Shown piece after piece: positions 6,402 through 64,000 of a stretch of 64,000 nucleotides of DNA. Under the pieces are notes generated by a model that was given only the letters and a program-made list of their open reading frames with translations, was not told the origin of the DNA and made no database searches. Numbering within the stretch: the first letter of the stretch is position 1; each line of letters opens with the position of its first letter. Source of the stretch: Cyanobacteria bacterium auto_48_18 (GTDB lineage: Bacteria; Cyanobacteriota; Vampirovibrionia; Obscuribacterales; Obscuribacteraceae); the NCBI GenBank assembly GCA_036170915.1, contig JAVHQC010000029.1, forward strand, positions 64,001 to 128,000, read 5' to 3'. The translations under genes were made by a program, and so were the position numbers.

Positions 6402-6428
6402 TATTGACGACTATCCCAACTATCCCAA

Positions 6429-8270: not shown

Positions 8271-8499
8271 AATCAGCTATTGAAAATCACCTATATATAT
8301 CTGTTCCCTGGTGGGCTATTAACTATGCAGCAAGAAGCCCGCGAACCGGTCAGGTACCTGATAGCAAAAGCTTGCCATACATAAAGATGGCCAACGTGTC
8401 ACAGTCTCCAGACATTTCTTGAATCATAGCCATACTGGCACTCTTCAGCCCGCCGTCTGCTATGCTTGTCTGGACTTTATTGAAACTTACTAGCAGGCA

Positions 8500-16253: not shown

Positions 16254-17954
16254 TCAGCCGAACAGTTCTTTGCTGGCGATACCAGCACGCAAATTTACCT
16301 CGTCTTTAATTGCCTCTGGCGCCGTATTTAAATCTCCAATCCAGTCGAGATCCGCCACCGCTTTATAAAAGTCTGAGTCAAAGGCACGAGTGCGCACCAC
16401 AACCGGCATGGGCACTGCATAACCCAGCACTAGCGCTTGTTGTTTCGGGTCCATCTGGGCCAGCACAGTACGCAAAGTACTTGACCCTGATACTCCAGTG
16501 AATACAGCATCGATATCTTTTTCATCGTTGAGCAATGCGGTGACCCTGGTGCCGATTTGACTGAGCACTTCCGGGTCGATTCCTGATGGTCTTTGATCGA
16601 CAATCAAAAGAGTGACGAAATACTTGCGCATTTCTCTGGCGATAATACCAAATATGGTTTGCTTAGCCACCGCCGGCGAGAGAAATTTATGCGCTTCCTC
16701 TATCACTATCATTAGTTTGCGTGGGGGCGGAACTCGCTCAGGATCACAGACATAAAGCTCTGACTGGCGCACGTACTCGGCGTGAATGCGTCTGGTAATA
16801 ATGTTGGTGGCAAGCATGTACGAAAGCAAATTATTTTGCCGGCCAAATTCGAGCACCACATGTTTGCCGGCGGCGATTTGATCAAGAATCTCTTCTATAT
16901 AGTTATGACCAACTCGTGGTTTCAAATACGGTGTCTTTTGCACCACAGTGTTGAGCCTGCGCTGCAGTGTTTTTAGAGAAGTTGGATGCCCCTTAAAGTT
17001 CTGGCAAAATTCTTCAATTTCGTCACCAGACATATCGAGCAGTGCTGAAATCCAATCAGCCCCGTTCTTCTCTTTGAAAATGTAAGCATTTTCCAGTGAT
17101 GCTTCCGTTAAATTGAGCTCGTTTTTAAGTAAATCGAGATCTTCAATTTCAATCTGGTTATAACCAATGTTGAGTTCGCGTGCATCAGGAATGCCGCGTG
17201 CTCGCGAAGACTCTTTATCAAGCGAAAACACCACCACCTGTGAGCCAAAAAGCTGTTTCAAGCCCTTCACTCTTGGCGCTGATTTACTCTCAGACATAGC
17301 CTGCCAACCGTACTCATTGTGCATATCGAAAACCAGCACCGATGCCAGATCTTTTTTGATAATGCCGCTCAAAAATATGCGTGTCAAAAACGATTTGCCC
17401 GTGCCCGATTTGCCAAAAATGCCGTTAGAGCGTTCGATGAACCGATTGAGGTCCACGCATACCGGAGTTTCCATGTTCAGCGGTCGGCCGATATTAAAGT
17501 GAGTGTTGTGCGGATCGCTTTCGTCTTCTTCACCGAACACCAGAGCAAAGTCAGCCGAGTCAGCTTCATAGACTGGAGAAAAATGTGAGGGAATAGTCTT
17601 CACCGGCCGCAACTCACGGCCGTCGCCCTCGTTATCACCTTTAATCTTGCCTGTGCCCTGCTCGAGCATTAACATCGGTTGCAATTTAACTGTGCCGAAG
17701 GTGGTCATGCCAGAGAGTACCGACATGAGAAAAGGGTCGGTGCGAGGCGGGTTGAGCAAAATACTTTGATTGGCCGCTGACAGCGTGACGTCAGTGAGCA
17801 TGCTGAAAAAGCGCGAATTAGCGCCTTCCACCACAACAAAGCGGCCCACGCGCAAATCTTCTACACTTTGAGCGGTATCAAGCCTCATTTCCAGACCGGC
17901 TGAAAGCGAGCCCTGGATAATGATGCCCAGATAGTTTGGCTTCGATTCAGGCAT
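16254..17954 (-). CDS. HerA-like (DUF87) ATPase with N-terminal HAS-barrel
   Basis: Walker A GKSGTGKS, FDMHNEY, Walker B IEEAH, AREMRKY and DQRPS. Confidence 0.9.
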   Translation of the reverse strand: MPESKPNYLGIIIQGSLSAGLEMRLDTAQSVEDLRVGRFVVVEGANSRFFSMLTDVTLSAANQSILLNPPRTDPFLMSVLSGMTTFGTVKLQPMLMLEQGTGKIKGDNEGDGRELRPVKTIPSHFSPVYEADSADFALVFGEEDESDPHNTHFNIGRPLNMETPVCVDLNRFIERSNGIFGKSGTGKSFLTRIFLSGIIKKDLASVLVFDMHNEYGWQAMSESKSAPRVKGLKQLFGSQVVVFSLDKESSRARGIPDARELNIGYNQIEIEDLDLLKNELNLTEASLENAYIFKEKNGADWISALLDMSGDEIEEFCQNFKGHPTSLKTLQRRLNTVVQKTPYLKPRVGHNYIEEILDQIAAGKHVVLEFGRQNNLLSYMLATNIITRRIHAEYVRQSELYVCDPERVPPPRKLMIVIEEAHKFLSPAVAKQTIFGIIAREMRKYFVTLLIVDQRPSGIDPEVLSQIGTRVTALLNDEKDIDAVFTGVSGSSTLRTVLAQMDPKQQALVLGYAVPMPVVVRTRAFDSDFYKAVADLDWIGDLNTAPEAIKDEVNLRAGIASKELFG

Positions 17955-34888: not shown

Positions 34889-36070
34889 TTAATCAGCGCC
34901 GCTGTCGGTGCTATTGACAGCTTGTTTGGGCTCTTCGTTGTCTTCATGGCCAAAAGCAATGGCGAAAGCCTTTTTGGCAATTTGATAAACCGGCGGTTTA
35001 CGCAAATTGGAAAGGGCGATCACGGCACATTTTGACTGAGGCAAAAGAATGACGGTGGAAGCGACGCCAGGTGTGCCGCCGTTCATTGCCAGCTTAAGTT
35101 GACCGTTTAAACTGGCCGGGTTGGCAGAATTCCACCCGAAGGCCCATGGACAAGGCAGACCTGTGCTTAGAGGGGGCCGCTCAGCCCACAGTCTGTAATA
35201 AGAGATAACTGACAAAATTTTCCCATTAAGCATGCCCAGTACATATTTGATCATGTCGTTCTGAGTGCTGGCGAGCATTCCGGCTGAGTACGCCACTGCC
35301 GGATTTTTATACTCAACTACACGCAGTTCTCCTGAACCATCACCATAACCCTGAGCCACACGACCAGTGTCGCGCAATAAAAAAGTTGTGGCGGTACTGC
35401 TCATATTGAGCGGCCCGAGAATGGTCTCGCGCACCACGTCTAGATAGTCGCGTCCAGTCACTTTGGCGATCACTGAGCCAAGAAGACGGTAGCTAAAATT
35501 GGAATAGTGAAACTCGGCTCCGGGTTGCGATTGCAGAGGCGTATTGACGAGAATGGGCAATTGGTCTCTCCAAAGTGTTTCTTTTGAGAGCACCGTCGGC
35601 ACACCTGCTGTCATAGAAGCAAGCTGCCGAATGGTGAGGTTCTGGTAAGGTGGAGTGAGGTCAGAAAGATACTTGGCCAGCGGGTCATCGAGGTTAATCA
35701 AGCCTTTCTCTACCAGCGAAAGCAAAGTAATGGCAGTGAAGGTTTTAGTCATGGAAGCTAAACCAAATACGGTATCACCATCAACAGGGCGACGACTTTG
35801 TAAATCGGCATAGCCGTAACACTTTTGAAATACGACTTGATTGTTGTAAATCACAGCCAGAGCGTATCCCGGCACATTTAGTTCTGTCACTTGCGCAGCC
35901 GCCATCTGGTCAACAGCTTCCAACTTAGCTTTTAAAGCATCACTGATATAAGGACCAGGTATGGTATCAATTACAATCGGCGAGGCAGGCTCGCCTGGTA
36001 TCACTTTTGCCTGAACAGCCGAAGTATTGAGAATCGCAAGAAGTACAGCCAAAACCAGTTTACTTTTCAT
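34889..36070 (-). CDS. Serine hydrolase, beta-lactamase class C-like
   Basis: SMTK (SxxK), FHYSNFSY (YxN) and signal peptide. Confidence 0.9.
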   Translation of the reverse strand: MKSKLVLAVLLAILNTSAVQAKVIPGEPASPIVIDTIPGPYISDALKAKLEAVDQMAAAQVTELNVPGYALAVIYNNQVVFQKCYGYADLQSRRPVDGDTVFGLASMTKTFTAITLLSLVEKGLINLDDPLAKYLSDLTPPYQNLTIRQLASMTAGVPTVLSKETLWRDQLPILVNTPLQSQPGAEFHYSNFSYRLLGSVIAKVTGRDYLDVVRETILGPLNMSSTATTFLLRDTGRVAQGYGDGSGELRVVEYKNPAVAYSAGMLASTQNDMIKYVLGMLNGKILSVISYYRLWAERPPLSTGLPCPWAFGWNSANPASLNGQLKLAMNGGTPGVASTVILLPQSKCAVIALSNLRKPPVYQIAKKAFAIAFGHEDNEEPKQAVNSTDSGAD

Positions 36071-44036: not shown

Positions 44037-46706
44037 ATGCAATCAAATCATCTCACAAGGCTACTTGTGGGCGGGACGACTCTTGCCCTTCTGAATGCCG
44101 CACTATCCATATCAGTATTGGCGTCACCAGCTTCAGCCAGGCAACTCGTAGCTGTCAGCGGTAAAAAAGCTGAGCGCACCAGTGAGCAAACACAAAAACA
44201 AAAGCAAAAAGAAAATGCAGGTACGCTTCTGGCCATGAGCAGTAGCGGCAAACCGCTGGGCCATTGCCCCCTTAAGCATACTGATGTGCAGACTGAAATC
44301 TCTGGCTACATCGCTCGAGTAACAGTAAAGCAAGTATTTCAAAACCCTTTTAAAGACAAAATCGAAGCCAATTACACTTTCCCGCTTTCAGACAACGGCG
44401 CCGTTGATGAAATGCTAATGAAGGTAGGAAGCCGAGTCATCAAAGGCCAAATCAAAAAGCGTGAAGAAGCCAGACAAATATATGAACAAGCTAAAGCTAA
44501 CGGCTATGTGGCTTCACTACTCGATCAGGAACGCACAAATATTTTCACCCAATCAGTAGCAAATATTGAACCGGGTAAAGAAATTGAAATCACAATCAAA
44601 TATATAGAAACCTTGCCCTATGAAGCAGGCAAATTCTCATTCACATTCCCGACAGTGGTAGGGCAACGCTTTATACCCGGAGAGCCTGTAGGCAAGAGCG
44701 GCAACGGCTCAGCCAACGATACCAACCAGGTGCCTGACGCATCCCTGATTACACCAAATGTAGTGGCAGAAGGTCAGCGTGCCGGCCATGACATTTCGAT
44801 AAACGTGCATCTTGATGCCGGCATGCCGGTGTCGCAAATCTCATCTAAGCTGCACGAAGTTCAAGTGCATGATCGAGGTAGCGGCAAAGCAGATATCAGC
44901 CTGGCAGACCGCTCGACTATTCCCAATAAAGACTTTGTGCTCTCATGGAATGTGGCCGAAGATAAAATCAAAAGCGGCTATGTAGCTTATCGCGACCCCT
45001 CAGCAAAAGACGGAGCGGGATATTTTACGGTGATGTTGATTCCACCCAAAAGAGTAACACCCGACAAAATCGCGCCAAAAGAAATGATCTTCGTCATTGA
45101 TTGTTCTGGCTCACAAAGCGGCGCTCCATTAGACAAATGCAAACAAACCATGCGTTACATTCTCAATCATATGAATGCCAACGACACATTCCAGATCATT
45201 GCTTTCAACAGCACTCAGCAAACATTTGCCGCCAAACCACAACCGGTCAGCGAAGAAATGAAAAGCAAGGCCCGTCAGTTCATCGATGCACTTCAAGCTA
45301 ATGGTGGCACCTGGATGGCCCCAGCAGTGGAAAAAGCCTGCGCTATTCCAGCTGATGCTAACCGCCTTCGCATCGTCACTTTCATGACCGACGGCTATGT
45401 GGGCAACGACTACGAAGTGATGGGTATGGTGAAAAAGCTGCGCGGAAAATCACGCTGGTTTTCATTTGGCACCGGCAATAGTGTCAATCACACCTTAATT
45501 GATGGTATCGCCCACGAAGGCGGCGGAGAGGCCGAGTATGTATTCTTAAACAGCTCAGCTGATGAAGCCGGCAAGAAATTCTATGACCGTATCTCTAGCC
45601 CTGTGCTCACCGATGTGCAGTTACAGGTAAACGGCACCACCACTAAAGAAGTCTATCCCAAAGAAGTTGCTGACGTCTGGGCCGAAAAACCACTCTACTT
45701 CAAAGGAAAATATTTAAAAGGCGGGCCTGGCACAATTGTCTTAAAAGGATTTGCAGCAGGCAAACCTTACGAACAACAATTGAAAGTGCAATTTCCTGAA
45801 TCTGACACCAAAAATCGCGGTATTGCCTCCATGTGGGCGAGAGCGAAAGTGGACAGACTGATGTCTGAAGACTGGTTTGGAGCACAGTCAGGACAAGCCA
45901 ACAAAGAAATCAAAGACGAAATTACGAACGTCGCCCTCGAACATCACATCATGAGCCAATACACCTCTTTTGTCGCTGTGGACGAATCGGCAGTAACCAA
46001 AGGGCAATCAAGTAAAACAGTCAATGTAGAAGTGGAAATGCCCGATGGTGTCAGTCGAGAAGGAGTGTTCGGCAATAATAAAGGTTTCGCCACTGGCATG
46101 ATGCAATCGCGAATGAACAATTTCAATTTGGCAGTGCGCCGCAGTGCCCCTCAAGGGTCATTCGCCTCAGTGAACACCCGTGGCTTCGGTGGTGGTGCTG
46201 GCAGTGGTGGTAGTGTCGCTGGTGGATCACCAGTAGCGATGAGGCAAAAACTCAGTTACGCAAGTAGCCAGCCCATGCCTGCACCTGCACCAAATGCGAT
46301 GCCAGTGCCCCAGTCAGAAGCCAAAGCAGCTTCAAGTGCGCATGGCCGAGAAGAACTGGCTGACAGACAGCGCCCTGACCGCATTTCTGCTGATAAAAAA
46401 CTAGAGGAAAAAGCCGACAGAGAAAGCGACAAAGCGAAAGAAAAAGATGTGAGCAAACTATCAGCCTCACTTACCGCTAAAGTCAACCAAGAGAGCGCCA
46501 ATCACAAAAATCCGCGCCTACTGATAGAACTGACTTTGAAAAACATCAGCGCCGAAATCGAAAAAGCCTTAAAAGCACTTGGCGTAGAAATCATTTCAAA
46601 AAAAGACGGCAAAACGGTCAAGGCCTATGTCAAACTCGACAAACTGCAGGCCTTAGCCAAACTAGATTTCGTTTTGCAAATCGACCTTGCTTCGGACCGC
46701 AAGTAG
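44037..46706 (+). CDS. Exported VIT + vWA domain protein
   Basis: VIT pattern (VKQVFQNP, YTFPL, NIFTQSVANI); MIDAS DCSGS, TDG; YTSFVAVD. Confidence 0.9.
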   Translation: MQSNHLTRLLVGGTTLALLNAALSISVLASPASARQLVAVSGKKAERTSEQTQKQKQKENAGTLLAMSSSGKPLGHCPLKHTDVQTEISGYIARVTVKQVFQNPFKDKIEANYTFPLSDNGAVDEMLMKVGSRVIKGQIKKREEARQIYEQAKANGYVASLLDQERTNIFTQSVANIEPGKEIEITIKYIETLPYEAGKFSFTFPTVVGQRFIPGEPVGKSGNGSANDTNQVPDASLITPNVVAEGQRAGHDISINVHLDAGMPVSQISSKLHEVQVHDRGSGKADISLADRSTIPNKDFVLSWNVAEDKIKSGYVAYRDPSAKDGAGYFTVMLIPPKRVTPDKIAPKEMIFVIDCSGSQSGAPLDKCKQTMRYILNHMNANDTFQIIAFNSTQQTFAAKPQPVSEEMKSKARQFIDALQANGGTWMAPAVEKACAIPADANRLRIVTFMTDGYVGNDYEVMGMVKKLRGKSRWFSFGTGNSVNHTLIDGIAHEGGGEAEYVFLNSSADEAGKKFYDRISSPVLTDVQLQVNGTTTKEVYPKEVADVWAEKPLYFKGKYLKGGPGTIVLKGFAAGKPYEQQLKVQFPESDTKNRGIASMWARAKVDRLMSEDWFGAQSGQANKEIKDEITNVALEHHIMSQYTSFVAVDESAVTKGQSSKTVNVEVEMPDGVSREGVFGNNKGFATGMMQSRMNNFNLAVRRSAPQGSFASVNTRGFGGGAGSGGSVAGGSPVAMRQKLSYASSQPMPAPAPNAMPVPQSEAKAASSAHGREELADRQRPDRISADKKLEEKADRESDKAKEKDVSKLSASLTAKVNQESANHKNPRLLIELTLKNISAEIEKALKALGVEIISKKDGKTVKAYVKLDKLQALAKLDFVLQIDLASDRK

Positions 46707-50347: not shown

Positions 50348-51001
50348 ATGAGAAGTAATCACTTCAATCAGGGTTTCTTTTTCACGTGTTTACTTTTCTG
50401 CGCAGTTTTGCTGCAGCTTCTCTCGCCACCCTCTGCCCAGGGGCAACAACGCCGACTGCCGCCCTGCCGCTTAGATAGTTTCGTCCATCAGGCCGGCAGC
50501 GCCGCCGAAGCGATATATGGCGACGAAGGCATTAGAACCCCTCCACCATTTTTCGGATTTGGCCAGCAGAATCGCATTGCCAGTGGTTTCTTCGGCACTA
50601 GAGACCAGGGCCTGACCACCGGCCACGGCAGCCACATGCCCAGCGCCTGGGGAGCAGACGAGTTTGTCAGCCCGCCGGGGGAATGGTGTGATAGTGGCCC
50701 CAACAATGGCCGCAATGTTTACTCAGGCGCAACCGACAACACTTATGATGTCAGCGAACAATTACTCAGCCTCGAGACTGGTATTGAAGCGATGCGAAAA
50801 AGAATCGCTGCATTTAACGACAATATTTCTACCCTGCATTCCATACTTGCTAGCTTGAGCCCCGCAGACAAAGCCGGTCAACAAGCAATCGCCAACGAAG
50901 TAAACAGACTCGTGACCGAACGCAATCAGATGCTACTAAACCTACACACTGCTCAGCAAGAAGCAGCCAACAATTTTGGAAAAAGGACTGGCGGTTCGTA
51001 A
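50348..51001 (+). CDS. Hypothetical exported protein
   Basis: Signal peptide; Gly/Pro-rich middle and C-terminal coiled coil. Confidence 0.7.
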   Translation: MRSNHFNQGFFFTCLLFCAVLLQLLSPPSAQGQQRRLPPCRLDSFVHQAGSAAEAIYGDEGIRTPPPFFGFGQQNRIASGFFGTRDQGLTTGHGSHMPSAWGADEFVSPPGEWCDSGPNNGRNVYSGATDNTYDVSEQLLSLETGIEAMRKRIAAFNDNISTLHSILASLSPADKAGQQAIANEVNRLVTERNQMLLNLHTAQQEAANNFGKRTGGS

Positions 51002-51771: not shown

Positions 51772-53166
51772 GTGAGTGATTATCGTCGGCAACTTTTAAG
51801 TTGCTTTGGACAAACACGTATTTTGAGATTGGGGCCACCAAAGTGGCTTACGCTGCTTTGGTCATTGATTTTTTGTGGAGTGTTTGCGCTACCGGCCATG
51901 GCAACCACGGCACCAACGATCACGCCAGGCACAGGCGTTTACTCTACTGTGCGTCCTACGGCTACGATTACTGGAGATCCAGGAGCAGTCATACATTTCA
52001 CCACGAACGGAACCAGCCCGTCCGCTCTGAGCCCCATTTATACCGCTGCTATCCCACTGTCCGACAAGAATGTCATTAAGGCGATGGCCAGCTTGTCTGG
52101 CGTGGACAGCGCTATCACAACTGCTTATATCTTGAACGACCCTTCAAGTCTTCCCGTTCCGCGATCGGGATTGCAGCTGTGGTTACAGGGTGATTTAGGC
52201 CCTATAGTATCAGGCACAAATGTTACGCAGTGGAGCGATCTCTCTGGCGCCACTAACAATGCAACTCAGGGCACCATGGCTAATCAGCCGACTCTTCTGA
52301 CAAATGCCTTGCATGGATCAAGTGCTGTCAACTTCAATGGCACAAGTTCATATCTTACCCTGACGTCAGGGCTAAATGATCTGAGTGCTGGCACTTCACT
52401 TTACGCGGTGATTAGTCCGAACACGCCGACCGGAGCCAAGACACTCTACACAAGTGGGGCGGCCGGTGTCACTGATATGGTGAGCGTGCAGACCAATGGC
52501 ACCACTGCAACGGCTAACTTTAACAACGGGGCGACTGCAAGCAACATTGCTTCCGCCGCTGCAGCACTGGCGACTTTAAAGTACCAGGAGCTTGGTGTCG
52601 TCCACAACGGCGCTGCCTCTGCAACTATGGACGTCAATGCAGCTCCTGTGAAGACAGGAGCCGTGCAGAATTTGAACACGGTAAGTCGCACGGTCAACAG
52701 AATCGGCACCAGTAGTGCTTTAAGCGGTTATTGGGGAGGGAAGCTGGCCGAACTACTCGTTTATTCAAGAGCTCTTTCTGCTTCTGAGCACGCCAACGTC
52801 ACCGCATATTTGGCATCGAAGTATCAATTGAATTTCAACGCTACAACCCCGGCCCCGACTATAGCACCGGCAACCAGCACCTTGCTAGAACCAGGGCAAG
52901 TGGCCATATCAGCCAATCCGTCGGCCGAAGTGCGGGTGACGCGTGATGGCACGAACCCTACCATCAGCTCACCTTTGTACACCGGCCCGTTTACTGCATT
53001 TCACACTCAAACAATCAAAGCGATTGCAGTATATGCCACCGGCACCAGTGCCATATCGACATCCACATTGACTCTGAATTCGACAAAATATCCGGCACCA
53101 AACGCTTCGGATGCTCGGGAACTCAAAATCAACCTACAACTTCCAACAACAGGCATTGCACCATGA
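51772..53166 (+). CDS. Exported LamG/ConA-like protein flanked by two Fn3-associated (CHB_HEX_C-like) domains
   Basis: HFTTNGTSPS..SPIYT and TRDGTNPT..SPLYT repeats around GLQLWL...QWSDLSG...NQP...FNG...ELLVYSRALS; GAGGAG before GTG 51772; ATGA overlap with next gene. Confidence 0.8.
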   Translation: MSDYRRQLLSCFGQTRILRLGPPKWLTLLWSLIFCGVFALPAMATTAPTITPGTGVYSTVRPTATITGDPGAVIHFTTNGTSPSALSPIYTAAIPLSDKNVIKAMASLSGVDSAITTAYILNDPSSLPVPRSGLQLWLQGDLGPIVSGTNVTQWSDLSGATNNATQGTMANQPTLLTNALHGSSAVNFNGTSSYLTLTSGLNDLSAGTSLYAVISPNTPTGAKTLYTSGAAGVTDMVSVQTNGTTATANFNNGATASNIASAAAALATLKYQELGVVHNGAASATMDVNAAPVKTGAVQNLNTVSRTVNRIGTSSALSGYWGGKLAELLVYSRALSASEHANVTAYLASKYQLNFNATTPAPTIAPATSTLLEPGQVAISANPSAEVRVTRDGTNPTISSPLYTGPFTAFHTQTIKAIAVYATGTSAISTSTLTLNSTKYPAPNASDARELKINLQLPTTGIAP

Positions 53167-54791
53167 AGGACCTAATGCAAAGAGTAAATGCAAAGCTCAA
53201 AATGTCGCAGTTGAAGCCCGTGCCCGGAACAAACAGGCTAGCGTGCGTATGCCTGGCGGCCGTGTTTTTGCTCAGTCAGTTTACCCCAGCATTGGCGCTA
53301 GCACCAGTTACAGAACCACCTGTGGTACCACCACCACAATTAGTGGCACCGCAGCCGAAAAATGGCGTCAAAACTGGCCCACGTTCTGTAACTCAATTCA
53401 TCGCAAAAAGTGTTCTGAGTGCTAACCCAAGCGATCTTGAAATTGCCACAACACGAATCTTTTCCGAACCGCTCACTCCGGTCGGTAGCGAATTGGTAAG
53501 CGGTGAGAATCAGGCTATCGCAAGTCTTGTTCAGTCGTTAAAAGTTAAAGCCGCCCCAGAAGATGTATCAGCGCTGACGAATTTCATTTCGGCATTTCCT
53601 ACTTCTCGCTGGACACCTAGCATTGAGAGCAACCTGGCTGAGCTGTACTCGCGCACAGGCTACCTCACGCGTGCCATTGCCGGTTGGAAGGCTGTTTGGG
53701 AAAGAACAAAAACTGAAAAAGGCACCGCTCAAATAGCAGTCGCAAATCATGCCATGGCAAATCTTCTCACCACGTATGCGCGGTTGGGAATGAAAGAGGA
53801 ATTGAAAAGTCGCTTTGCCGAAATCGAAGGACGACCATTTTTTGGCAGTGATGAGACCAAGATTAATGGTGCCCACATTGGCTACTTGGACATGCTCGGA
53901 AATGAGCAGCACGCCTTCAAATGCGGCCCATACGCGATTAATACCCTTTTCAATTTAGAGAAAAACACAAAAACTCGCCACCCAATTATTGAGAAGGCTG
54001 CATCAACTGCCAAAGGCACCAATCTGCTTCAAGTGAAACAATGGGCCGATCAAGTAGGGCTGAAAATGCAGGCAGTGAAGCGCACTGCGGGCGGTGCCAT
54101 AGTGGTGCCATCAATTATGCACTGGAAATTGCAGCACTTTGCGGCCATCGTTGCCGAGAAAAACGGCAAGTATCTTCTAAAAGATCCAACATTCGATAAT
54201 GACGGAAGCATCTGGGTTTCGTCGGCGGCGTTAGATGAAGAAAGCGACGGTTACTTTTTAATTCCTACTGCAAAAGCATTACCTGCTGGTTGGCAGTTAG
54301 TCACCGATGAAGAGGCGAAGTCTGTTTGGGGTAAAGGCGGATCGCACGAGGCCGATCATAATGAGAAAGGGTGCAATGCGCCGTCTTCTGGGGCACAGAG
54401 TTGTGAGAAACCCTGTGGTATGGCGGTAGCGTCTGCTTACAGTATGCAAGCCACCTTAACTATTGCAGATAAGCCGCTTTTCTATCAGCCTCCAGTCGGG
54501 CCTGCCATCGATCAGGTTGTCACCTACGACCACCTCCAAACTAACCAACCAAGCACTTTCACATTCACGAATCTTGGGCAGAACTGGAACTTCAACTGGC
54601 TCTCTTACCTGACTGTTGACCCAATCACTTCAGTTGCCACTCTGCGCAAAATGGGTGGTGGTTCAGAGATTTATGCTCCAGACATTGTTACTGGCCTCTA
54701 CTCACCCTCTTTGATGTCACAAGCCAAACTTGTGTACATCAGCCCCGGCGTGTACCAGAGGCAAATGCCAGACGGTTCAATGCAAGTCTAA
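53163..54791 (+). CDS. N-terminal part of frameshifted RHS protein: signal region, helical domain, C39-like cysteine peptidase, start of RHS/YD region
   Basis: KCGP (Cys), WKLQHF (His) and KDP (Asp); NLGQNWNFNW RHS N-terminal pattern; ends at TAA 54789-54791 in mid-repeat. Confidence 0.82.
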   Translation: MKDLMQRVNAKLKMSQLKPVPGTNRLACVCLAAVFLLSQFTPALALAPVTEPPVVPPPQLVAPQPKNGVKTGPRSVTQFIAKSVLSANPSDLEIATTRIFSEPLTPVGSELVSGENQAIASLVQSLKVKAAPEDVSALTNFISAFPTSRWTPSIESNLAELYSRTGYLTRAIAGWKAVWERTKTEKGTAQIAVANHAMANLLTTYARLGMKEELKSRFAEIEGRPFFGSDETKINGAHIGYLDMLGNEQHAFKCGPYAINTLFNLEKNTKTRHPIIEKAASTAKGTNLLQVKQWADQVGLKMQAVKRTAGGAIVVPSIMHWKLQHFAAIVAEKNGKYLLKDPTFDNDGSIWVSSAALDEESDGYFLIPTAKALPAGWQLVTDEEAKSVWGKGGSHEADHNEKGCNAPSSGAQSCEKPCGMAVASAYSMQATLTIADKPLFYQPPVGPAIDQVVTYDHLQTNQPSTFTFTNLGQNWNFNWLSYLTVDPITSVATLRKMGGGSEIYAPDIVTGLYSPSLMSQAKLVYISPGVYQRQMPDGSMQV

Positions 54792-54826
54792 ACCAGTCAG
54801 ATGCCAGTTCGCCGCCACGTATTTTC

Positions 54827-57800
54827 ATGACCCAAGTAATTGACAAAGCGGGTAATGCTGCGCTTGTTCAGTACGACTCCAACTTCAGGCTGACCAGTCT
54901 CACTGACTCGATCGGCCAGGTTTCGACTGTAAATTACGTTTCTAATACTTTGGGAAATGTCGGCTTCTACAAAATTAGTTCCATCGTCGACCCTTTTGCA
55001 AGATCATGCTCGTTCACCTGGGATTCAACAACAACTTTACTTTTAAGCATCACCGACGTAGTTGGCTTAAAATCCCAGTTTACGTACGACCCATCTTCAT
55101 CGTTTATCACGTCGATGACCACGCCGTATGGCACTTCAAGTTTCTATAAATATGTGCCCACCTATGCCGGTCCATATCCTGCACAAGGTCTGAAAATAAC
55201 ATATCCTGACGGTACTTCTGATGTTTTAGAAAGTTTTCTCTCAGTCGAACAAATTACCTACTTCTGGGACCGACACGCTAACCAACTTTATCCCGCAGAT
55301 CCCGCTAATCAAATTTACACTCACTGCGAGCAGATGAAATGGCTGCTTGATTTCAGTACTTCACTGATGAAGCCGGTTTATCAGTATGCTATCCATCCAT
55401 TAGAAAGTGCCAGCCCTATCTATTACCGCTCTCAAGGCCAGGGTGCCAGCTCCAATTTCATCGGCACCACCAACAAGATTACTGAGGCAAAGCGCAACAT
55501 TGGTAACGCCATCACAATTGCAACAGTGGGTGGCACGGTTGTTACCGGCGACCAATTCTACCTGGGGGCCGACGGACAGGCTCAGATTTATTATTCTGTG
55601 CAGGCAGGCGACACTCTTACTTCTATTACGAGCAATCTGATTGCGCAAGTAAATTCCAACCCTGGCATGCAGGGTGTGGGCGTTACTGCTGTGCAAATTT
55701 CCCCAACATCGTTCAGTTTGCATACAGATAGCCCCCTTGTGGCGCAGTACAGATATGCGCCTTTTGGGGGCGTTGTTCTCACTATCGCTATGCGATCTCA
55801 ATCGGAGCAAACGGCCAATGTCACCATTGGCGGTACCATGACTGTCGGCGATACCGTCAACTTAGATATCGCCCTACCGTATCCCAATAATTTCTCTCAA
55901 CGCGTCACTCACACGGTCGTCGGTGGAGACACGCCTACCACTGTCGCCGCTTCAATGGCAGCAAAAATAAATGCTGACCCGCTTTTTGCTCAGTATCCCT
56001 ATGTCGGCACGTCTAGCGGGCCCGTTTTAAAGGTTTCGTCTTTTAGCGGAAAAGTCGTCGACTATGGCAGCTTCATTGGTGGATCGGGCAGCGAGTCAAT
56101 CGTTGTCTCTGATATTCGCAATGGCACCATTCAGCTTTCTACAAATAAATATAACCCCTTAGGAAAAATGACTGAGTCTGTGGACCCGGTCAATCGCAAG
56201 TTTTCCTATGTTTATGATTCAAACAACATCGATTTGCTTCAAGTAAAAGAAACGCAGAACGCTAATAATTTTCAGATGGAAGCTTGGACTTGGAATGCAA
56301 AGCACATGCCGCTCACCCACACTGATGGCTCCGGCCGTGTCAAAACTTACGTCTACAATTCGCTCCAGCAGCCCATCTCTGTCACTGATGCCAATTCGAA
56401 CGTCACGACGATGACGTATACTGGCACGTCTTCCGCCACCATTGGCGGCACTGTCACCGCCGGCAATGTGCTCACAATTACTGTATTTGACACTGGACTG
56501 GCTGGAGGTCAGAAGGCAGTAAATTACACGGTTATCGCCGGGAACACACTAACGACCATTGCCACCGGATTAAGAAATGCCATCAATGCAGACTCAAGCT
56601 TGCAGGCAATAGGAGTTACCGCCACATCAGCTGCGGCCGTGATTACATTGAAATCAAATTCGGTAAACGTGACTACCTACGCTCAATCTGTGAGCGGCGG
56701 TGCGACTGCAACTATTGCTTTGGGAGCAAACAGATTTGGCTATCTGACCAAAATAGATGGCCCACTTGCTGGCAGCCAAGACGTCACCACAATTTCTTAC
56801 GACGGATTCGGCAGAGTGTTCTCCGTTTCGAATTCCACAGGCTATACCAAAACTTTCAGCTATGACAATATGAATCGCCGTATCAGAACAACTCATCCCG
56901 ATAACACTTTTGAACAAACTGTCTGGAGTCGTCTTGACCCGGTGATGACAAAAGACAGAATTGGCAGATGGTCTCAAACTGCTTTTGACTCCATGGATCA
57001 AGTTGCTTTCGATATCGACTCGCTGGGCCGTAAAACTCAATATACCTGGTGCTCTTGCGGGTCAATCTTAACTTTGACCGACCCCGCGAACAACACAACC
57101 AGTTGGGGCCATGACCTTCAAGGCAGAACTACTTCCAAGACCTATGCCAACTCGACAGCAATAAATTATGCATACGAACCTTACGGCAGCAATTTGCGCT
57201 CGAGAACTGACGCCTTGAACCAAATTACAAATTATCTCTATTACCCGGATGATAAAATTTTCCAGACCAGTTACAAAAATGCTGTCAATCCAACTGCGTC
57301 GACGACAACTGCGTGGGACTCAAATTACGATCGGGTCAAAAGTATTCAGAAAAATGACTGGGGTACGATTGCTTACACTTATAATCCATATATTTTGCCG
57401 CTTGGCACTCCCACTACTGGCGGTGGCATGCTGCAGGTCGTACACAATGACAGGATGGCAAATTCAGACATAAGCTTCGTTTATGATAATTTGGGCCGAA
57501 CTACCAACCGCTCAATTAATGGCGCCGCAAATTCAAATTCTTGGACCTTCGATGCCATGAGCAGAGTAACTGGCGAGACTAATGCGTTAGGCAGCTTCGC
57601 CTATGCTTATGTAGACAATACTGCGGGTTCTTCTAAAGGCAGTACGCGCTTAGCGTCCGTTACTTATCCAAACAGTCAAGTGACTAAATACAGCTGGTAT
57701 CCAGCAATTGGGGATGAGCGCCTGCAACAAATTGCCAATTTAAAAACCAGCAGCGGTCCAACCATTTCTCAATTTAGCCATGTTTATAATCCAGCTGGAG

Positions 57801-60553
57801 AAATGACCCAATGGAACCAGCTGCAAGACAATAAGAGCGTCAATTACAGGCTGGGCTATGATCAGGCCGGCCAACTTACAGGCTCGCAAGCAAGCCCTGG
57901 CCAACCTTCAGCGAGTTATATCGGTCAAAATTATTTTGCCTATGATGTTGCCGCTAATCGCACCGCTGTGCAGCAAAATAGCGTCAATAGAGTTAGATTT
58001 GGAGGCACGGTCACCACTGGCAATGCTTTAACGATAACTGTCAAAGATTCGGCGTTAACAGGCGGACAAAAAGCCCTAGTTTATACGGTCGTTGGCGGAG
58101 ACACCTTATCGACGATCGCGACTAAATTTGCTGCGCTCATTACCGCCGATACAGATATGCAGGCACTCGGTGTCAATGCTTCGGCCAATGGGCCGATGAT
58201 GAGCATCAAATCTGCATCGCCAAATATCACTACATACTCTCAATCCACCAGCGGCGGTGCCACCACTACCATTGCTTTAGGCGTCACCGGCAATTTTGTT
58301 GAAAATGCGGTAATTGGTGGCACCAAGACCACAGGAAATATAATCACAATAACGGTGAGTGATGCTGCTTTAGCGGGCGGACAAACAGCCATTAATTACA
58401 CCGTTTTAGCCAGCGACAACCTGACCACGATGGCTACAGGCCTTAAAAACGCGATAAATGCAAATGCTGGCCTCACTGCAGCCGGAGTAACTGCGACTTC
58501 GGCCGGAACTGCGATTACAGTTAAATCAACATCTGCCAACGCAACCACTTACTCTCAATCAACAAGTGCTGGCGCCACTGCCACAATTTCGCTTTCGATC
58601 AATCAAAACGGTCCGCAGACAATCGCACTATCGGGGACAAAGACCACCGGCGATACCATTACAATTACGGTTTATGATGCAGGTCTCGCTGGCGGTTTGA
58701 AAGCAGTGACCTACACCGTGCTCGCCGGCGACACATTGACCAGCATTGCGACAGGGTTGGCGGCTGCGCTGACAGCAGATTCAGCTCTGCAAGGAATTGG
58801 AGTCAGTGCCACAGCAGCAGCGACCGTGGTCACGCTACAGTCCAACTCGATAAATCAAACTATGCTTCGCGAAACCACAAGCGCAACTGCTACCGAACTT
58901 ATCTCAATAAATATTCCAGCCAATGGTGTTCAAACCGCTGTTATCGGGGGAACAAAGACCACCGGTGACGTGGTAACTATCACCACATATGATGCTGCTC
59001 TCGGTGGGGGTACGCAGGCCGTAAATTACACAGTCTTGTCTGGCGATACTCTAACTTCTATTGCTACTGGGCTCGCTGCCGCAATTACAGCGAATGCAAG
59101 TTTGTCTGAAATTGGCGTCTCTGCGACCTCTTCTTCGACCGTAGTCAACGTAAAATCAACTTCGATTAACAACACGACTTATGCAAAATCGACCAGCGGT
59201 GGTGCCACTGAAACAATTACGCTTGCCCGAGTAATGACTGTTGGCCAATATGGATACAATAATGTTAACGAGCTAACTAGCATTACGGCTGGCGGCGCCA
59301 CAAGATTTCAAGGAACTACAAACAAGCCATTAAAATCAGCGACGGTAAATAGTCAGCCAGCGACCCTCAACTGGACGGAAAGTTTCACTGGCAATGCCGT
59401 GTTAAGCAATGGCGCAAATAATGTGCCGGTTAGTGCTACAGATGGTGCAAACAATGTCAAAACACACAATTATCAAATTCCAATTGCAGGGCCGGGAGGC
59501 TCGACCCTAACGTTTGATGCCAATGGCAATATGACGAATCATGGAGCAAATTTGTATGCTTGGGATGTTGAGAACCGGTTGATTAAAATTACATATCCAG
59601 GAACCGGAAATTATAGTCAATTTCTCTATGATGCTACGGGAGTTGTTGGCCAGGTTACTGAAACTATTGCAAGTAGTCTCAGCAGCACGAAGCAATTTAT
59701 TCGCTGCAATTCGACAATCTGTGAAGAGCGCAGCGCAACTAGCACTTTGACAAAGCATTTTTTTGAAAGCGGGCAAACTTTAAGCGGCGCAGTTTATTTT
59801 TACACTTTGGACCATACTGGCTCTGTAAGGGCGATGACAGACAACTCTGCCGCAGTGCAGGCTCAATATGATTATGGTCTGTACGGCCAAGCGACCAAAA
59901 TTTCCGGTGCCCTTGATGCAGATTTTCAGTATGCCAGATACTACTCACATCAGCCAAGCCAGCTTAGCCTTACGCTTTACCGAGCTTACAACCCCGCTCT
60001 TGCGCGGTGGATCAATCGCGACCCCATACGTGAGCTGGCGAATATCAATCTCTACTGTTATGTCCATAACAGGCCCCTTAATTACGTTGATCCCCTGGGA
60101 TTAGGTGAATTTCAATATGTGGGATCAGGAACATTTAATAGTAAGGCAAAGGGCATAATCGATAAACTGAAAAAGTGTCCAGCCATGAAACCAGTCTTTA
60201 AGAACATCGCCGACGGACCATTGAACGTTATGGTTGGTCCCGCAGAGCCGGGCTATATGCCAAATACGGAACTTGACCCGGCATCAGGTCTTGTTATAAA
60301 CCTTGATTTTTACGTTGACGTAACAGGTCATGCAGGCTCCATAATTGCCGGACCTGATATTCAAGCAGCTCATGAGTTAGGCCATGCTGAGGATATTGAA
60401 CGCAATAGGAACTCAAGGGCTGATGACAAGAAAAACAGAGCTAGGTGTGAAAAACATTGTGTCGAATTAGAAGATGCAGTTCGAGCATGGACGGGAGCGC
60501 CCGGCGAGCCACGAAGAAGTTACTCAAATGCGCAAGGAATGACTTATCCATGA
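54827..60553 (+). CDS. C-terminal part of RHS/YD-repeat polymorphic toxin with HExxH metalloprotease tip
   Basis: YD repeats, RHS core (DHTGSVR, RAYNP..ARWINRDP, NLYCY, PLNYVDPLGL), then HELGH; frame is open upstream of the ATG to at least 54791. Confidence 0.92.
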   Translation: MTQVIDKAGNAALVQYDSNFRLTSLTDSIGQVSTVNYVSNTLGNVGFYKISSIVDPFARSCSFTWDSTTTLLLSITDVVGLKSQFTYDPSSSFITSMTTPYGTSSFYKYVPTYAGPYPAQGLKITYPDGTSDVLESFLSVEQITYFWDRHANQLYPADPANQIYTHCEQMKWLLDFSTSLMKPVYQYAIHPLESASPIYYRSQGQGASSNFIGTTNKITEAKRNIGNAITIATVGGTVVTGDQFYLGADGQAQIYYSVQAGDTLTSITSNLIAQVNSNPGMQGVGVTAVQISPTSFSLHTDSPLVAQYRYAPFGGVVLTIAMRSQSEQTANVTIGGTMTVGDTVNLDIALPYPNNFSQRVTHTVVGGDTPTTVAASMAAKINADPLFAQYPYVGTSSGPVLKVSSFSGKVVDYGSFIGGSGSESIVVSDIRNGTIQLSTNKYNPLGKMTESVDPVNRKFSYVYDSNNIDLLQVKETQNANNFQMEAWTWNAKHMPLTHTDGSGRVKTYVYNSLQQPISVTDANSNVTTMTYTGTSSATIGGTVTAGNVLTITVFDTGLAGGQKAVNYTVIAGNTLTTIATGLRNAINADSSLQAIGVTATSAAAVITLKSNSVNVTTYAQSVSGGATATIALGANRFGYLTKIDGPLAGSQDVTTISYDGFGRVFSVSNSTGYTKTFSYDNMNRRIRTTHPDNTFEQTVWSRLDPVMTKDRIGRWSQTAFDSMDQVAFDIDSLGRKTQYTWCSCGSILTLTDPANNTTSWGHDLQGRTTSKTYANSTAINYAYEPYGSNLRSRTDALNQITNYLYYPDDKIFQTSYKNAVNPTASTTTAWDSNYDRVKSIQKNDWGTIAYTYNPYILPLGTPTTGGGMLQVVHNDRMANSDISFVYDNLGRTTNRSINGAANSNSWTFDAMSRVTGETNALGSFAYAYVDNTAGSSKGSTRLASVTYPNSQVTKYSWYPAIGDERLQQIANLKTSSGPTISQFSHVYNPAGEMTQWNQLQDNKSVNYRLGYDQAGQLTGSQASPGQPSASYIGQNYFAYDVAANRTAVQQNSVNRVRFGGTVTTGNALTITVKDSALTGGQKALVYTVVGGDTLSTIATKFAALITADTDMQALGVNASANGPMMSIKSASPNITTYSQSTSGGATTTIALGVTGNFVENAVIGGTKTTGNIITITVSDAALAGGQTAINYTVLASDNLTTMATGLKNAINANAGLTAAGVTATSAGTAITVKSTSANATTYSQSTSAGATATISLSINQNGPQTIALSGTKTTGDTITITVYDAGLAGGLKAVTYTVLAGDTLTSIATGLAAALTADSALQGIGVSATAAATVVTLQSNSINQTMLRETTSATATELISINIPANGVQTAVIGGTKTTGDVVTITTYDAALGGGTQAVNYTVLSGDTLTSIATGLAAAITANASLSEIGVSATSSSTVVNVKSTSINNTTYAKSTSGGATETITLARVMTVGQYGYNNVNELTSITAGGATRFQGTTNKPLKSATVNSQPATLNWTESFTGNAVLSNGANNVPVSATDGANNVKTHNYQIPIAGPGGSTLTFDANGNMTNHGANLYAWDVENRLIKITYPGTGNYSQFLYDATGVVGQVTETIASSLSSTKQFIRCNSTICEERSATSTLTKHFFESGQTLSGAVYFYTLDHTGSVRAMTDNSAAVQAQYDYGLYGQATKISGALDADFQYARYYSHQPSQLSLTLYRAYNPALARWINRDPIRELANINLYCYVHNRPLNYVDPLGLGEFQYVGSGTFNSKAKGIIDKLKKCPAMKPVFKNIADGPLNVMVGPAEPGYMPNTELDPASGLVINLDFYVDVTGHAGSIIAGPDIQAAHELGHAEDIERNRNSRADDKKNRARCEKHCVELEDAVRAWTGAPGEPRRSYSNAQGMTYP
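57990..59230 (+). repeat. Four tandem ~105-aa protein repeats inside the RHS gene (three more at ~55515-56110 and ~56432-56725)
   Basis: GGTxTTG..ITIT..D..L.GG..A..YTV..GDTL..IA...A.AI.A......GV.AT unit; boundaries approximate. Confidence 0.85.
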
Positions 60554-61542
60554 AGTTACGCGTCTACTTTTTGATACTTCTAATTATGATTAGTTTGCAA
60601 AAATTCAATGCAATCTCTAAACCAATGTCGGGACAATTGAAGTTGCAGTATGGGGATTTACGGCCGTTTCTTATCGGTATCAGTCCACTCAATTATTTCG
60701 CAAGAGACAAAGAAACAATGCCCGCGGTAGCCAAATTAGCAAAAAAAATGGGCTATACCAATGTTAGTTTTTGTGGCGTTTTTCTTACGGCTGATCCCAA
60801 TTCAATCTTCATTCTACTCTCAGATGATTTGCATAAAGTTTCTAACGAACGATCGCTCTTACTGTTTTCAATTAACCGGAAATCTGGCAGCTCAAAATAT
60901 GTGCGCTCATTTACGTACAGACTGATACGCACCGTAGCTTTTGCTAATGAACTAAGTAGATTTGATCGGTTTTCTTTTCAAAAGAGTATGAATTACTCCT
61001 CTTCCAAAAAAAACAACTTATTAATCTCTGAGTCCATATTGGATTCTGCACTTCGCAGCAATCGCGAATTTAACGATGTGATGCGCTTCAAAGGCTGCAT
61101 ACCATACAAAGATGGACGAATGATATATTATCTAGAAACTGCTTTCCTATATGCTAAGCCGGTGGCTAAGAGACGTCTGTACGTTTCGGATAAGAGCAAT
61201 AAATCTATTGAATTTTGTTGTGAGTTCGATGAATCAATGAATATTGATGTCATGAATTCGGTTCTAAATTCCAATACCCTTGAGCAACTCCCAAAGCATA
61301 GTTTTCTCGAGTTGATTAAAGCACCAAAATGTCGCCTTTCTGACATTGACCCTAGACTAGTAGGCGGGGCTGCTGTATATGCGGAAATACGATTAAAGTT
61401 TCCATGTAGCGATCCTGACGTTCGAGGTTGGAAGCATGGACCACTATTGATAACTCTTTATTCTCTTAAGTCCTATGATCGCTGTGCTTTTTTTATGACA
61501 AACAAAGGACGAACAAAGCTCGAAGCTGTGTGGCTTAGATAG
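60550..61542 (+). CDS. Hypothetical exported protein, candidate immunity protein
   Basis: ATG 60550 overlaps the RHS stop (ATGA); N-terminal MKLRVYFLILLIMISL; visibly AT-rich. Confidence 0.7.
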   Translation: MKLRVYFLILLIMISLQKFNAISKPMSGQLKLQYGDLRPFLIGISPLNYFARDKETMPAVAKLAKKMGYTNVSFCGVFLTADPNSIFILLSDDLHKVSNERSLLLFSINRKSGSSKYVRSFTYRLIRTVAFANELSRFDRFSFQKSMNYSSSKKNNLLISESILDSALRSNREFNDVMRFKGCIPYKDGRMIYYLETAFLYAKPVAKRRLYVSDKSNKSIEFCCEFDESMNIDVMNSVLNSNTLEQLPKHSFLELIKAPKCRLSDIDPRLVGGAAVYAEIRLKFPCSDPDVRGWKHGPLLITLYSLKSYDRCAFFMTNKGRTKLEAVWLR

Positions 61543-61756: not shown

Positions 61757-64000
61757 TCATTTCGAGATAATTGTGCTCGCGGCAATGCGCTCGGCATTTT
61801 CTTTCAGCCACCGTTGTGCACCTTCCGCATTTGAAAATTCACCCTCGCGCTGTGCTTCGCGAGCCGCTTCAAGCACGGTTTTAAATTGTGGACCAGGCTT
61901 CATATTGATAGCCAACAACATATTGCCATTAACAATCGGCTTCTCACCCAGCTTGCCTGATTGCTTTAAGTCTTCGAGTTTTTGCAAGAGAAAATCGCGG
62001 CGAGATTTATCAGAGTCTGGTTTTTTTGTGCCCGTCGCATCAGCGTGCTGAATTTCAATTAGATCCATGATGTCAGGCCGCTCTAAAAGAGCAGTGAGCT
62101 TACCTGGTCGTAAGCTTTGCACTTCATGCATAATCATATGCAGACGCACTAGCTCGGTTACGCGTTGTTCTTGATTGCTCGACATTTTTAAACGCCTGGC
62201 GATGTCGTGAGTTAATTCAGCACCTTTGGCGTCGTGGCCATGATTGCTGATGCCGCCATCAGGCCAGATTTTTTGCGTGGCCGGTTTACCCACATCGTGC
62301 AGGAGGCCGCCCATCATGCGTTCAAAATCACCACCGGTAAGATTCTTCAATACATATTTAGTGTGGGTCCAGACTGTTCCTTCCGGATGATGCACCGGAT
62401 CTTGCCTGCCCTTGGGCCCTCTTAGTTTATAAACTTCAGGCAGTACTTGTTTCATCAAACCAGAGTCCATCATAATTTGCATACCGCGCACCGGATTTGA
62501 TGACAGCAAGATGCCTTTGATCTCGTCCCGAATACGTTCATTTGATACGGCATGAATGCCTATGGAATTGGCTTTGATAGCAGCCAGGGTAGCCGGATCA
62601 ACTGTGAAGCCTTCGTATTTAGAAGCAAAGCGCGGCACACGCATCATGCGCAATTTGTCTTCGCTAAAGCGCAAATTAGGGTCACCCACCGCGCGAATAG
62701 TCTTGCCGGCAAGGTCGTGTTGACCACCGTAAAAGTCATAAATAGTTCCGCTAATTGGATCTTGAAACATAGCGTTAATTGTCAAATCTCGCCTGGCAGC
62801 ATCGGCCGACAGTGAAGTAACAAACTGCACTCCGTCTGGCCGGCGACCATCACTGTAAGTGCTTTCAGAGCGCAAAGTGGCGATTTCAAACTCTCGGCCG
62901 TTCACCACTACATTGATCACGCCAAAGGCTTTTCCTACCGGTATTACTTTGTAGCCCTGATCGATGAAAAGTTTTTCTACTTGATCAGGAGTGGCCGACG
63001 TGGCGATATCGTAATCTTTAGGAGTTTTGCGCATTAGCAAGTCACGCACAGCACCACCAGCGAAGACACCAATATGTTGTTTGTCTTGCAGTGTTTGCAC
63101 CAGGTGCGCACCGAGCTCGCGTTGATAGGCAGACTCAGCTTCAGCACTCAAGTCTGACTTAACTTCACCTTCTTCTAAATGTTCATTTTTCGGCTGTCCT
63201 TTTGCAGCAGGAGCAATGCCGTGATCATGATCGCCATGGAAATCTACTGCTGGTCTGAACTTGCCATTGCTGGCTTCAAAAAGAGAAAATTCCTGTTTCC
63301 AGTGTTGCTCATAAGTGAGTTGACCCACTTTCAAATTTGGTATCAGAGCCGCAAGCGATGCTACTTGCACTTCAGAAGGTTGAGAAACTTTTGTTTTGCC
63401 CAGCTCTGAATTTATTTTTGCCTCCGTGAAACGGGCATCGATCTCTTGAGTCAGTCTGGTTTCTCTAAACAATTGCCAGGCTTCAGTACTCTTACCATCT
63501 TGCAAAAGTTTGGCACTAGCCTGAAAATTCTGCTCTTGTGCGCCGTTACTTTTTTGACTTAAGTGTTTTAATTCATGACCTAGCTTTGCGGCATCAGCTC
63601 CCGCTTCCAGCTCCACTCGTTTTGTGCCGAGAGCCAGCGATTGAGGAGCATCACTCTGAATGCGTGCCCACGGATTTTCATTGACAATATTTTTAAATGT
63701 TGGCGAGGTAGCGGCGTCGCCGGCAAATTCAGTCTGCACCAGCCTATCAACTGGCACGCCGCGTCCTGTAGCCAGATTAAAATGATCGGCTGCCCGGGCC
63801 ATGGCTTTTTGACCCACAGGCAGAGCGTGACTCATTACTATTCCACCTGCAGCGGCCTTGACGAGAGTTTCGCCGTCGGCCAGTTTGCCTTCGGCAATGG
63901 CAGTCGACGTGAGAGTCTGCACGCCGCCACCAATTGCGCCTGTGGCTGTGCGGGTGAGGATGCGACCAACTAGGCCACTTTTAGCGGCCAGCATATTTCC
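61757..64000 (-). CDS. Large protein (5'-truncated) with C-terminal class II CCA-adding tRNA nucleotidyltransferase + HD domain
   Basis: GGAVRD..DYDIAT, EIATLR, RRDLTINAM, EDKLRMMR, HHPEG and LLHDVGKP; more than 290 aa of extra N-terminal sequence; frame open at the window edge. Confidence 0.9.
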   Translation of the reverse strand, partial: GNMLAAKSGLVGRILTRTATGAIGGGVQTLTSTAIAEGKLADGETLVKAAAGGIVMSHALPVGQKAMARAADHFNLATGRGVPVDRLVQTEFAGDAATSPTFKNIVNENPWARIQSDAPQSLALGTKRVELEAGADAAKLGHELKHLSQKSNGAQEQNFQASAKLLQDGKSTEAWQLFRETRLTQEIDARFTEAKINSELGKTKVSQPSEVQVASLAALIPNLKVGQLTYEQHWKQEFSLFEASNGKFRPAVDFHGDHDHGIAPAAKGQPKNEHLEEGEVKSDLSAEAESAYQRELGAHLVQTLQDKQHIGVFAGGAVRDLLMRKTPKDYDIATSATPDQVEKLFIDQGYKVIPVGKAFGVINVVVNGREFEIATLRSESTYSDGRRPDGVQFVTSLSADAARRDLTINAMFQDPISGTIYDFYGGQHDLAGKTIRAVGDPNLRFSEDKLRMMRVPRFASKYEGFTVDPATLAAIKANSIGIHAVSNERIRDEIKGILLSSNPVRGMQIMMDSGLMKQVLPEVYKLRGPKGRQDPVHHPEGTVWTHTKYVLKNLTGGDFERMMGGLLHDVGKPATQKIWPDGGISNHGHDAKGAELTHDIARRLKMSSNQEQRVTELVRLHMIMHEVQSLRPGKLTALLERPDIMDLIEIQHADATGTKKPDSDKSRRDFLLQKLEDLKQSGKLGEKPIVNGNMLLAINMKPGPQFKTVLEAAREAQREGEFSNAEGAQRWLKENAERIAASTIISK

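Follow-up and report, generated by a model that had tools for sequence, protein, structure and literature searches.

How does a large polymorphic toxin of the Rhs type leave its cell, and how is its protein shell opened, if no injection machine is at hand? This question is raised by a three-gene operon in a 64,000-nucleotide (nt) stretch of Cyanobacteria bacterium auto_48_18 (order Obscuribacterales, family Obscuribacteraceae; contig JAVHQC010000029.1, positions 64,001 to 128,000), here called the window. For injector-free Rhs toxins, reaching the target and leaving the shell are stated as an open question in published work. The operon encodes a secreted-looking partner protein, an Rhs protein with a C39 cysteine peptidase in front of its shell, and an AT-rich third gene. 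We consider it somewhat probable that a conserved operon of partner, toxin and immunity genes is present here as a frameshifted copy, and that the toxin of its intact relatives is likely exported via Sec and a secretin, trimmed by the C39 domain before the barrel, and aimed or anchored by the partner. The proposal starts from the conserved gene order, the signal-like N-termini, the intact catalytic triad, and the variable tips and downstream genes.

The three co-oriented genes are linked by ATGA overlaps at 53163 and 60550 (Table 1), as a first-pass annotation made from the sequence alone had described. That annotation was also right about the partner, which has a signal-like N-terminus, Fn3_assoc, LamG and Fn3_assoc (two Fn3_assoc and one Laminin_G_3 match in Pfam); a conserved tail follows. 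The second gene had been read as a single Rhs protein of about 2460 amino acids (aa). Instead, the frame opening at 53163 (542 aa) stops at 54789-54791, and the remainder forms an open reading frame of 1908 aa in a different frame, without a hydrophobic leader. The parts listed for this protein were all recovered, namely the helical domain, C39 peptidase, seven inserts, core ending in DPLGL and HExxH tip, except that the supposed Ig-like segment gave only a Glucodextran_B match weaker than the cut-off (E 1.4e-4). Signal-peptide-like starts had been assigned to all three proteins; judged by hydropathy and not by SignalP, hydrophobic stretches are present in gene 1, in the Rhs protein's N-terminal portion (N-part) and in gene 3 (values over 12 residues of 2.3, 3.1 and 3.0, respectively), whereas the second Rhs frame has no such leader. 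With one frame breaking off near the beginning of the shell and the other leaderless, the window toxin is likely not exported. From its sequence this copy, the sole RHS core in the window genome (86% complete), is likely a recent pseudogene, and being broken it is a pointer to the family, not its best example.

A functional gene, with the break due to assembly error or programmed frameshifting, seems quite unlikely. There is a single break, the triad and core are intact, the window departs from the near-invariant N-part positions at two of them, and the only sequencing run that contains the stretch (X1) is possibly the assembly source, so that its agreement is not independent. Nevertheless, a single X1 contig agrees with the assembly with 0 differences and 0 gaps at depth 13, and 9 of the 44 complete relatives are also split, elsewhere. 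By eye, the site has neither a homopolymer nor a heptamer of the slippery-site consensus X-XXY-YYZ. A programmed split at the Met that opens the second frame was rejected as well: continuous relatives have M at this position in 49 cases and L in 29, and L118, the sole relative starting there, keeps a remnant of the deleted part. The ATGA overlap between genes 1 and 2 is a local feature, not a conserved one, as among 52 loci with an adjacent partner homolog the -4 overlap occurs only in the window and L065, and the gaps are mostly 1-73 nt.

The N-part profile matched 41 of 104 family genomes, so about four in ten carry the gene, with up to 4-5 copies per genome. It also matched 3/3 genomes in the order's second family and none of 400 other genomes sampled from the phylum; the named relatives are Obscuribacterales. 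More distant matches (~28-36% identity) were found in 117 plasmid records, of which 108 are from Ralstonia, five from Rhizobium and one each from Nitrosospira, Methylosinus, Hartmannibacter and Neorhizobium. No match was found in phages, and a metagenome scan with P0114 gave seven short loci covering shell regions only. For 60 of the 85 listed matches the surroundings were fetched (~5 kb upstream, 15 kb downstream). Of the 56 C39-type loci fetched, 35 read through intact as far as the tip, nine are split, 11 are cut by a contig end and one mostly lacks the N-part; 35 of the 44 complete loci are thus intact, and the splits in the other nine lie at scattered positions, none at the window's break site.

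Linkage between the partner and the C39-RHS gene was expected to be conserved, and it holds in both directions. A profile of the partner's last 106 residues identified 68 tail-bearing gene ends in the family, 64 of them directly 5' of a C39-RHS N-part; two of the others lie at contig ends, one precedes an RHS gene with a deleted N-part, and one stands alone. Conversely, a partner end precedes 64 of 68 N-part loci and is absent at four, a count that excludes seven front-of-shell-only matches, five sub-hits of counted loci and three weak C39-only hits. In the second family of the order the linkage is 3/3. The LamG domain, after which the partner had been named, is not its conserved element, since three scanned partners of 153-157 aa have one Fn3 domain and no LamG, while others have up to five (0 to 5+ copies). 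Partners range from 153 to >2000 aa across loci, and from 153 to >1600 aa among the 53 aligned tail-bearing ones. By sequence comparison, the constant element is the last Fn3-type domain with the ~30-residue tail (mean identity 0.49 and 0.52, versus 0.39 for the first Fn3 and 0.40 for LamG). In a monomer model of the partner (predicted local distance difference test, pLDDT, 90) the tail pairs with nothing and has no secondary structure, with pLDDT down to 67 and 54, which fits a predicted docking segment.

Alternatively, the partner could be a co-transcribed adhesin or export chaperone that does not stay bound, its tail being a sorting signal. It is missing at 4/68 loci and in Proteobacteria. 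We nonetheless hold this explanation to be improbable, because only 4 of 68 genes carry the tail without a following C39-RHS N-part; being nearly confined to genes before C39-RHS, the tail does not serve these genomes as a sorting tag of general use. At three of the four alphaproteobacterial loci read, the partner position is occupied by a gene for a secreted YD-repeat protein of 94-113 aa (L104:8540-8824, L105:8490-8831, L107:8516-8839), ending in a Trp/Gly-rich tail with Cys, possibly a second kind of partner.

The C39 domain keeps its Cys-His-Asp triad in 55/55 locus proteins and 120/120 database proteins (the sets overlap), as well as in five proteobacterial homologs read. In a structure model of Rhs residues 70-540, the TPR-like domain and the C39 domain are followed by a confident helical segment up to G390 and by disorder thereafter, and a domain scan found no ATP-binding cassette (ABC) transporter fused to the peptidase. 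The helical segment carries a motif spaced like the LahT recognition helix (-12/-7/-4): V/I/L/A at -12 in 119 of the 120 database proteins, Glu at -8 in 108, and V/I at -4 and Gly at -2 in all, with G390 and G392 both present throughout. This segment is better conserved (mean identity 0.586) than the protease (0.485) or the linker (0.217), and it persists in L120 and L121, where extra sequence parts it from the C39 domain. The leader-like pattern stands at the expected place in 108/119 proteins, against 0.5% of shuffles, and occurs 20 times elsewhere in 256,000 residues. The G-x-G behind the C39 domain is a candidate self-cleavage site ahead of the shell. Among four C39-less paralogs, the shell begins shortly after the signal-like stretch in three. 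These paralogs (L095-L098, 1312-1598 aa) have upstream genes with Cys as the second-last residue, and TPR-rich genes come after three of them.

In a secreted polymorphic toxin, the C39 domain could also act in trans, on the target envelope (peptidoglycan cross-links, S-layer, surface proteins) or on the partner, with helix-G-x-G as an uncleaved autoinhibitory or structural segment. The fold does match PeiR, a pseudomurein endoisopeptidase (Z 10.0), and StbD-CT (Z 11.1), a C39 toxin that cleaves other proteins at Gly-Gly, and at -7 and -1 the motif differs from the LahT consensus. However, one would expect a protease aimed at targets to vary with them, and here both domain and motif are constant from Obscuribacterales to Ralstonia and rhizobia, the motif sitting exactly at the prodomain-shell boundary before a disordered linker. 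We thus regard action in trans as unlikely and retain cleavage in cis as the favoured reading; which bond would be cut is uncertain, since in the case of StbD-CT the cut falls between two glycines.

Regarding export, no type VI secretion system (T6SS) sheath was found in the 104 family genomes, including 38 near-complete ones, nor any sheath of the phage or extracellular contractile injection system type in the same 104. PAAR occurs in three of them, never at C39-RHS loci. The window had been described as free of PAAR, VgrG, WXG100 and TcB genes; its 86%-complete genome likewise has no match to PAAR, T6SS sheath, VgrG-OB or SpvB (TcB), WXG100 not having been searched genome-wide. A non-T6SS system, as first suggested, agrees with these counts, and nothing in the results favours predation over ordinary competition. 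The window genome has three secretins and six GspF/PilC matches, and in Ralstonia (L103 and L108, about 480-8450) the C39-RHS gene is divergent from a gsp-type cluster for type II secretion (T2SS), with gspG nearest; linkage to gsp genes was seen in Ralstonia only. Sec plus a secretin is the simplest predicted export route.

The variation foreseen for tips and downstream genes is pronounced: the tips fall into 108 clusters among 175, and the downstream genes into 34 clusters among 42, with lower G+C content in 58/64. The related-tip pairs L057/L067 and L052/L080 also share their downstream gene, and 24 extra core-plus-tip cassettes are present in 16 loci. Pfam matches in 6/74 tips include Ntox37, Ntox44 and DUF4329. 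The window tip, a putative zincin, has a similarity of 0.96 to Peptidase_M91 and PipA/M85 clusters in the ESM Atlas, with no Pfam match and no stand-alone homolog; it aligns over just 14 residues with the only other HExxH tip (L082). Gene 3, correctly described as an AT-rich orphan (G+C 0.388 versus 0.476), is a candidate exported immunity protein, and its leader-like start would fit action outside the cytoplasm. The proteins could instead be surface adhesins or teneurin-like kin-recognition devices whose tips are signals, not weapons. Adhesion-type domains are many, numerous tips are Cys-rich or low-complexity without a known enzyme, and social roles of Rhs/YD proteins have been described (PMC13018210). 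Known toxin families among the tips, orphan cassettes and tip-matched low-G+C downstream genes speak for a weapon, which leaves this explanation very improbable. In the immunity position, four loci (L045, L064, L074, L091) have Clp_N-domain proteins, and L086:10804-11238 encodes a ClpX zinc-finger protein.

The shell combines YD/RHS repeats with a core ending in the PxxxxDPxGL motif, as in Rhs polymorphic toxins. The profile of its inserts matches a tail-sheath protein (PDB 9CB9, residues 102-168) over 73 positions of 100 (E 5.7e-6), and five of the seven have weak matches to PHROG 165; they resemble the phage tail-sheath insertion domain in sequence. Inserts number 2-10 in full-length Obscuribacterales-type relatives and are lacking in most of the distant proteins (1600-1840 aa). 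LysM was rejected as the main identity of the inserts, because its Pfam and PDB matches cover only ~28 residues, versus 73/100 for the sheath. Contractile delivery, which sheath-like inserts might suggest, was discarded too, as Phage_sheath_1 was found in 0/104 genomes. Assignment of the region after the linker to DUF6531 is not supported, as no match was found at these loci in five genomes. Separate long DUF6531-type genes (G073:C4, C2, C9, C1 and G059:C7) probably represent a second Rhs class.

Taken together, intact relatives could work as follows. Sec would take both proteins over the inner membrane, and a secretin of T2SS-like type would take them over the outer one. The partner would attach to the Rhs protein with its free tail and last Fn3 domain and to surface glycans with its variable array of LamG domains (0 to 5+). 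The aspartyl protease of the core, whose motif is intact here, would free the tip inside the shell, a step established for Rhs proteins. At G390-K391-G392, and there most likely behind K391, the C39 domain would make a cut in cis that takes off the TPR-C39 prodomain and corresponds to the autocleavage at the N-terminus of T6SS Rhs proteins. Finally, the tip would poison a neighbouring cell and the downstream gene would protect kin.

Several observations weigh against this proposal. The motif departs from a canonical double-glycine leader: position -7 is A in 85 and G in 31 of 120 proteins, not Leu, and -1 is K in 105 and R in 14, not Gly/Ala/Ser. The oxyanion Gln six residues before the Cys is replaced by Pro in 112/120 and by Glu in the window, a role that His may be able to take, as the LahT structure suggests (PMC6363468). 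The search pattern behind the 108/119 leader-like hits was composed after the alignment had been inspected. Similarly, 53 of the loci recovered with the tail profile behind the 68 gene ends had gone into its making (alignment A2), so that its informative part is how little else matched. Proteobacterial C39-RHS homologs have no LamG partner, which is therefore not needed for the toxin architecture. The secretin and GspF matches may belong to type IV/Tad pili. As 68/74 tips lack a Pfam match, toxicity is assumed for most of them, and gene 3 has no homolog (a self-hit only, and no ESM Atlas hit).

By architecture the protein is an Rhs polymorphic toxin, and it would work like those of the Sec/T2SS type, whose linkage to gspG in Ralstonia is already published. 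Ralstonia RRhs F II and Xanthomonas XRhs F VIII are non-T6SS Rhs toxins linked to gspG, with predicted exit by T2SS (bioRxiv 10.1101/2025.05.08.652813). The Ralstonia homolog found here (32% identity over the N-part) likewise adjoins a gsp cluster and for this reason is probably RRhs F II; the main text of the study has 0 mentions of C39 or signal peptide. In contrast to the Obscuribacterales family, the Ralstonia homologs have neither a LamG/Fn3 partner nor inserts. T6SS Rhs proteins such as Photorhabdus Rhs1 share the YD shell, C-terminal aspartyl autocleavage, encaged variable toxin, a downstream immunity gene and a cut before the shell, the last two being predicted here; Rhs1 is cleaved on both sides of the shell, and both cuts are required for toxicity (PMC8636562). 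C39-RHS loci differ in having no PAAR, VgrG or Eag, in the signal-like start, and in a front cut predicted to be made by a separate cysteine protease domain. The C39 domains of ABC-transporter maturation and secretion proteins and peptidase-containing ABC transporters (LahT150, ComA, PCAT1) share the fold, the Cys-His-Asp triad and a helix with hydrophobic -12/-7/-4 before Gly -2 (PMC6363468). Unlike them, the domain here has no ABC fusion, would act outside the cytoplasm and in cis, lacks the oxyanion Gln and faces Lys/Arg at -1.

Other secreted toxins offer partial parallels. In Neisseria MafA/MafB, too, a polymorphic toxin of Sec type is encoded behind a secreted partner that has been proposed as its anchor, MafA being an invariant lipoprotein whereas the partner here is modular (PMC3482391); no MAFB-N or MafA-type Pfam or NCBIfam match was found at the window. 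The same source describes 'inactive transglutaminase'-RHS toxins with a papain-fold domain between signal peptide and RHS repeats, as here, although those domains lost the triad that C39 keeps in 120/120, and Tox-PL-C39 appears there among the toxin domains and not in the role of N-terminal processing (PMC3482391). An injection machine is likewise absent for Bcn-A of Xanthomonas perforans (PMC7259588) and for the teneurin-like proteins of bacteria (PMC13018210), which are secreted Rhs/YD toxins accompanied by immunity genes. Bcn-A, a different Rhs, requires T2SS and is active only after secretion (PMC7259588). Both are modelled or solved with an FN-plug/propeller front, and a text search for C39 gave 0 hits for the teneurin-like proteins. 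In a giant-gene preprint, other proteins are mentioned in which C39 domains lie close to signal peptides, and the C39 domain of homologs already bears its name in database annotations. In the open-access literature we found no published account of Rhs proteins in which an active C39 at the N-terminus is combined with an internal leader, of the partner, or of the Obscuribacterales family.

Tentatively, and with some doubt, the family may belong to a cross-phylum class of injector-free Rhs toxins. In such a class a built-in C39 peptidase would read an internal bacteriocin-type leader and so open or mature the barrel, in Obscuribacterales a conserved C-terminal tail would connect the toxin to interchangeable lectin arrays, tip and LamG array would vary independently as warhead and targeting module, and the shell would be decorated with domains derived from phage tail sheaths. 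What the family supplies can be tested: the enzyme is named, the candidate cut site is given to the residue, and there is a candidate tail for docking. Its carriers include the cultured, non-pathogenic Rhizobium etli and Methylosinus. It also offers a testable mechanism for the T2SS-linked Ralstonia Rhs family and a main candidate weapon of Obscuribacterales.

Table 1. Features of the operon and their positions in the window
Feature	Positions	Strand	Basis or content
Partner gene, 464 aa	51772..53166	+	GTG start 3' of AGGAG; Pfam; model pLDDT 90
Partner C-terminal tail, residues 435-464, candidate docking segment	53074..53163	+	retained across 53 partners in an alignment
RHS gene, first reading frame, 542 aa	53163..54791	+	signal-like stretch, TPR-like domain, C39 peptidase, leader-like motif, linker, shell start
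TPR-like helical domain, residues ~115-246	53505..53900	+	model helices 46-177; CpoB profile 2.4e-5; YbgF TPR Z 10.6
C39 cysteine peptidase, C254-H325-D341	53910..54272	+	Pfam 8.4e-12; triad; ComA/LahT/PCAT1 Z 12.2-12.8
Double-glycine-leader-like motif W-x-x-V-x-x-x-E-A-x-x-V-W-G-K-G, residues 377-392, predicted cis cleavage site	54291..54338	+	
Hypervariable Cys/Gly/Pro-rich linker before shell	54339..54416	+	mean identity 0.217; pLDDT <50
Frameshift region, stop codon 54789-54791	54785..54792	+	three-frame translation; identical in run X1 contig
RHS gene, second reading frame, 1908 aa	54827..60553	+	YD shell with inserts, Ig-like segment, core, tip
Seven inserted repeats of ~100 aa	55529..59245	+	starts about 55529, 55829, 56444, 58001, 58316, 58631, 58946
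RHS core, bipartite R..DP-x-DPLGL aspartyl autoprotease motif	59873..60103	+	TIGR03696 5.3e-17
C-terminal tip, 149 aa, HELGH (HExxH), zincin-like candidate toxin	60104..60553	+	
AT-rich orphan (gene 3), 330 aa, signal-like start	60550..61542	+	G+C 0.388 versus 0.476; self-hit only

A secreted-looking gene of 217 aa (50348-51001) lies 770 nt upstream of the operon; it has one paralog on C36 (49% over residues 37-155) and no match in the fetched related loci. Downstream, on the reverse strand, a CCA/poly(A) polymerase-HD protein with a long N-terminal extension (61757-64000) runs off the window. Further away are a secreted VIT-VWA protein of 889 aa (44037-46706) and, with housekeeping genes otherwise around them, a HerA-like ATPase (16254-17954), a GH38 alpha-mannosidase (25972-28887) and a beta-lactamase-family protein (34889-36070). 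Beside rhizobial loci, three paralogous secreted hypothetical proteins of ~330 aa are encoded (L104:5530-8503, L107:5047-8117), of which the one scanned had no NCBIfam match.

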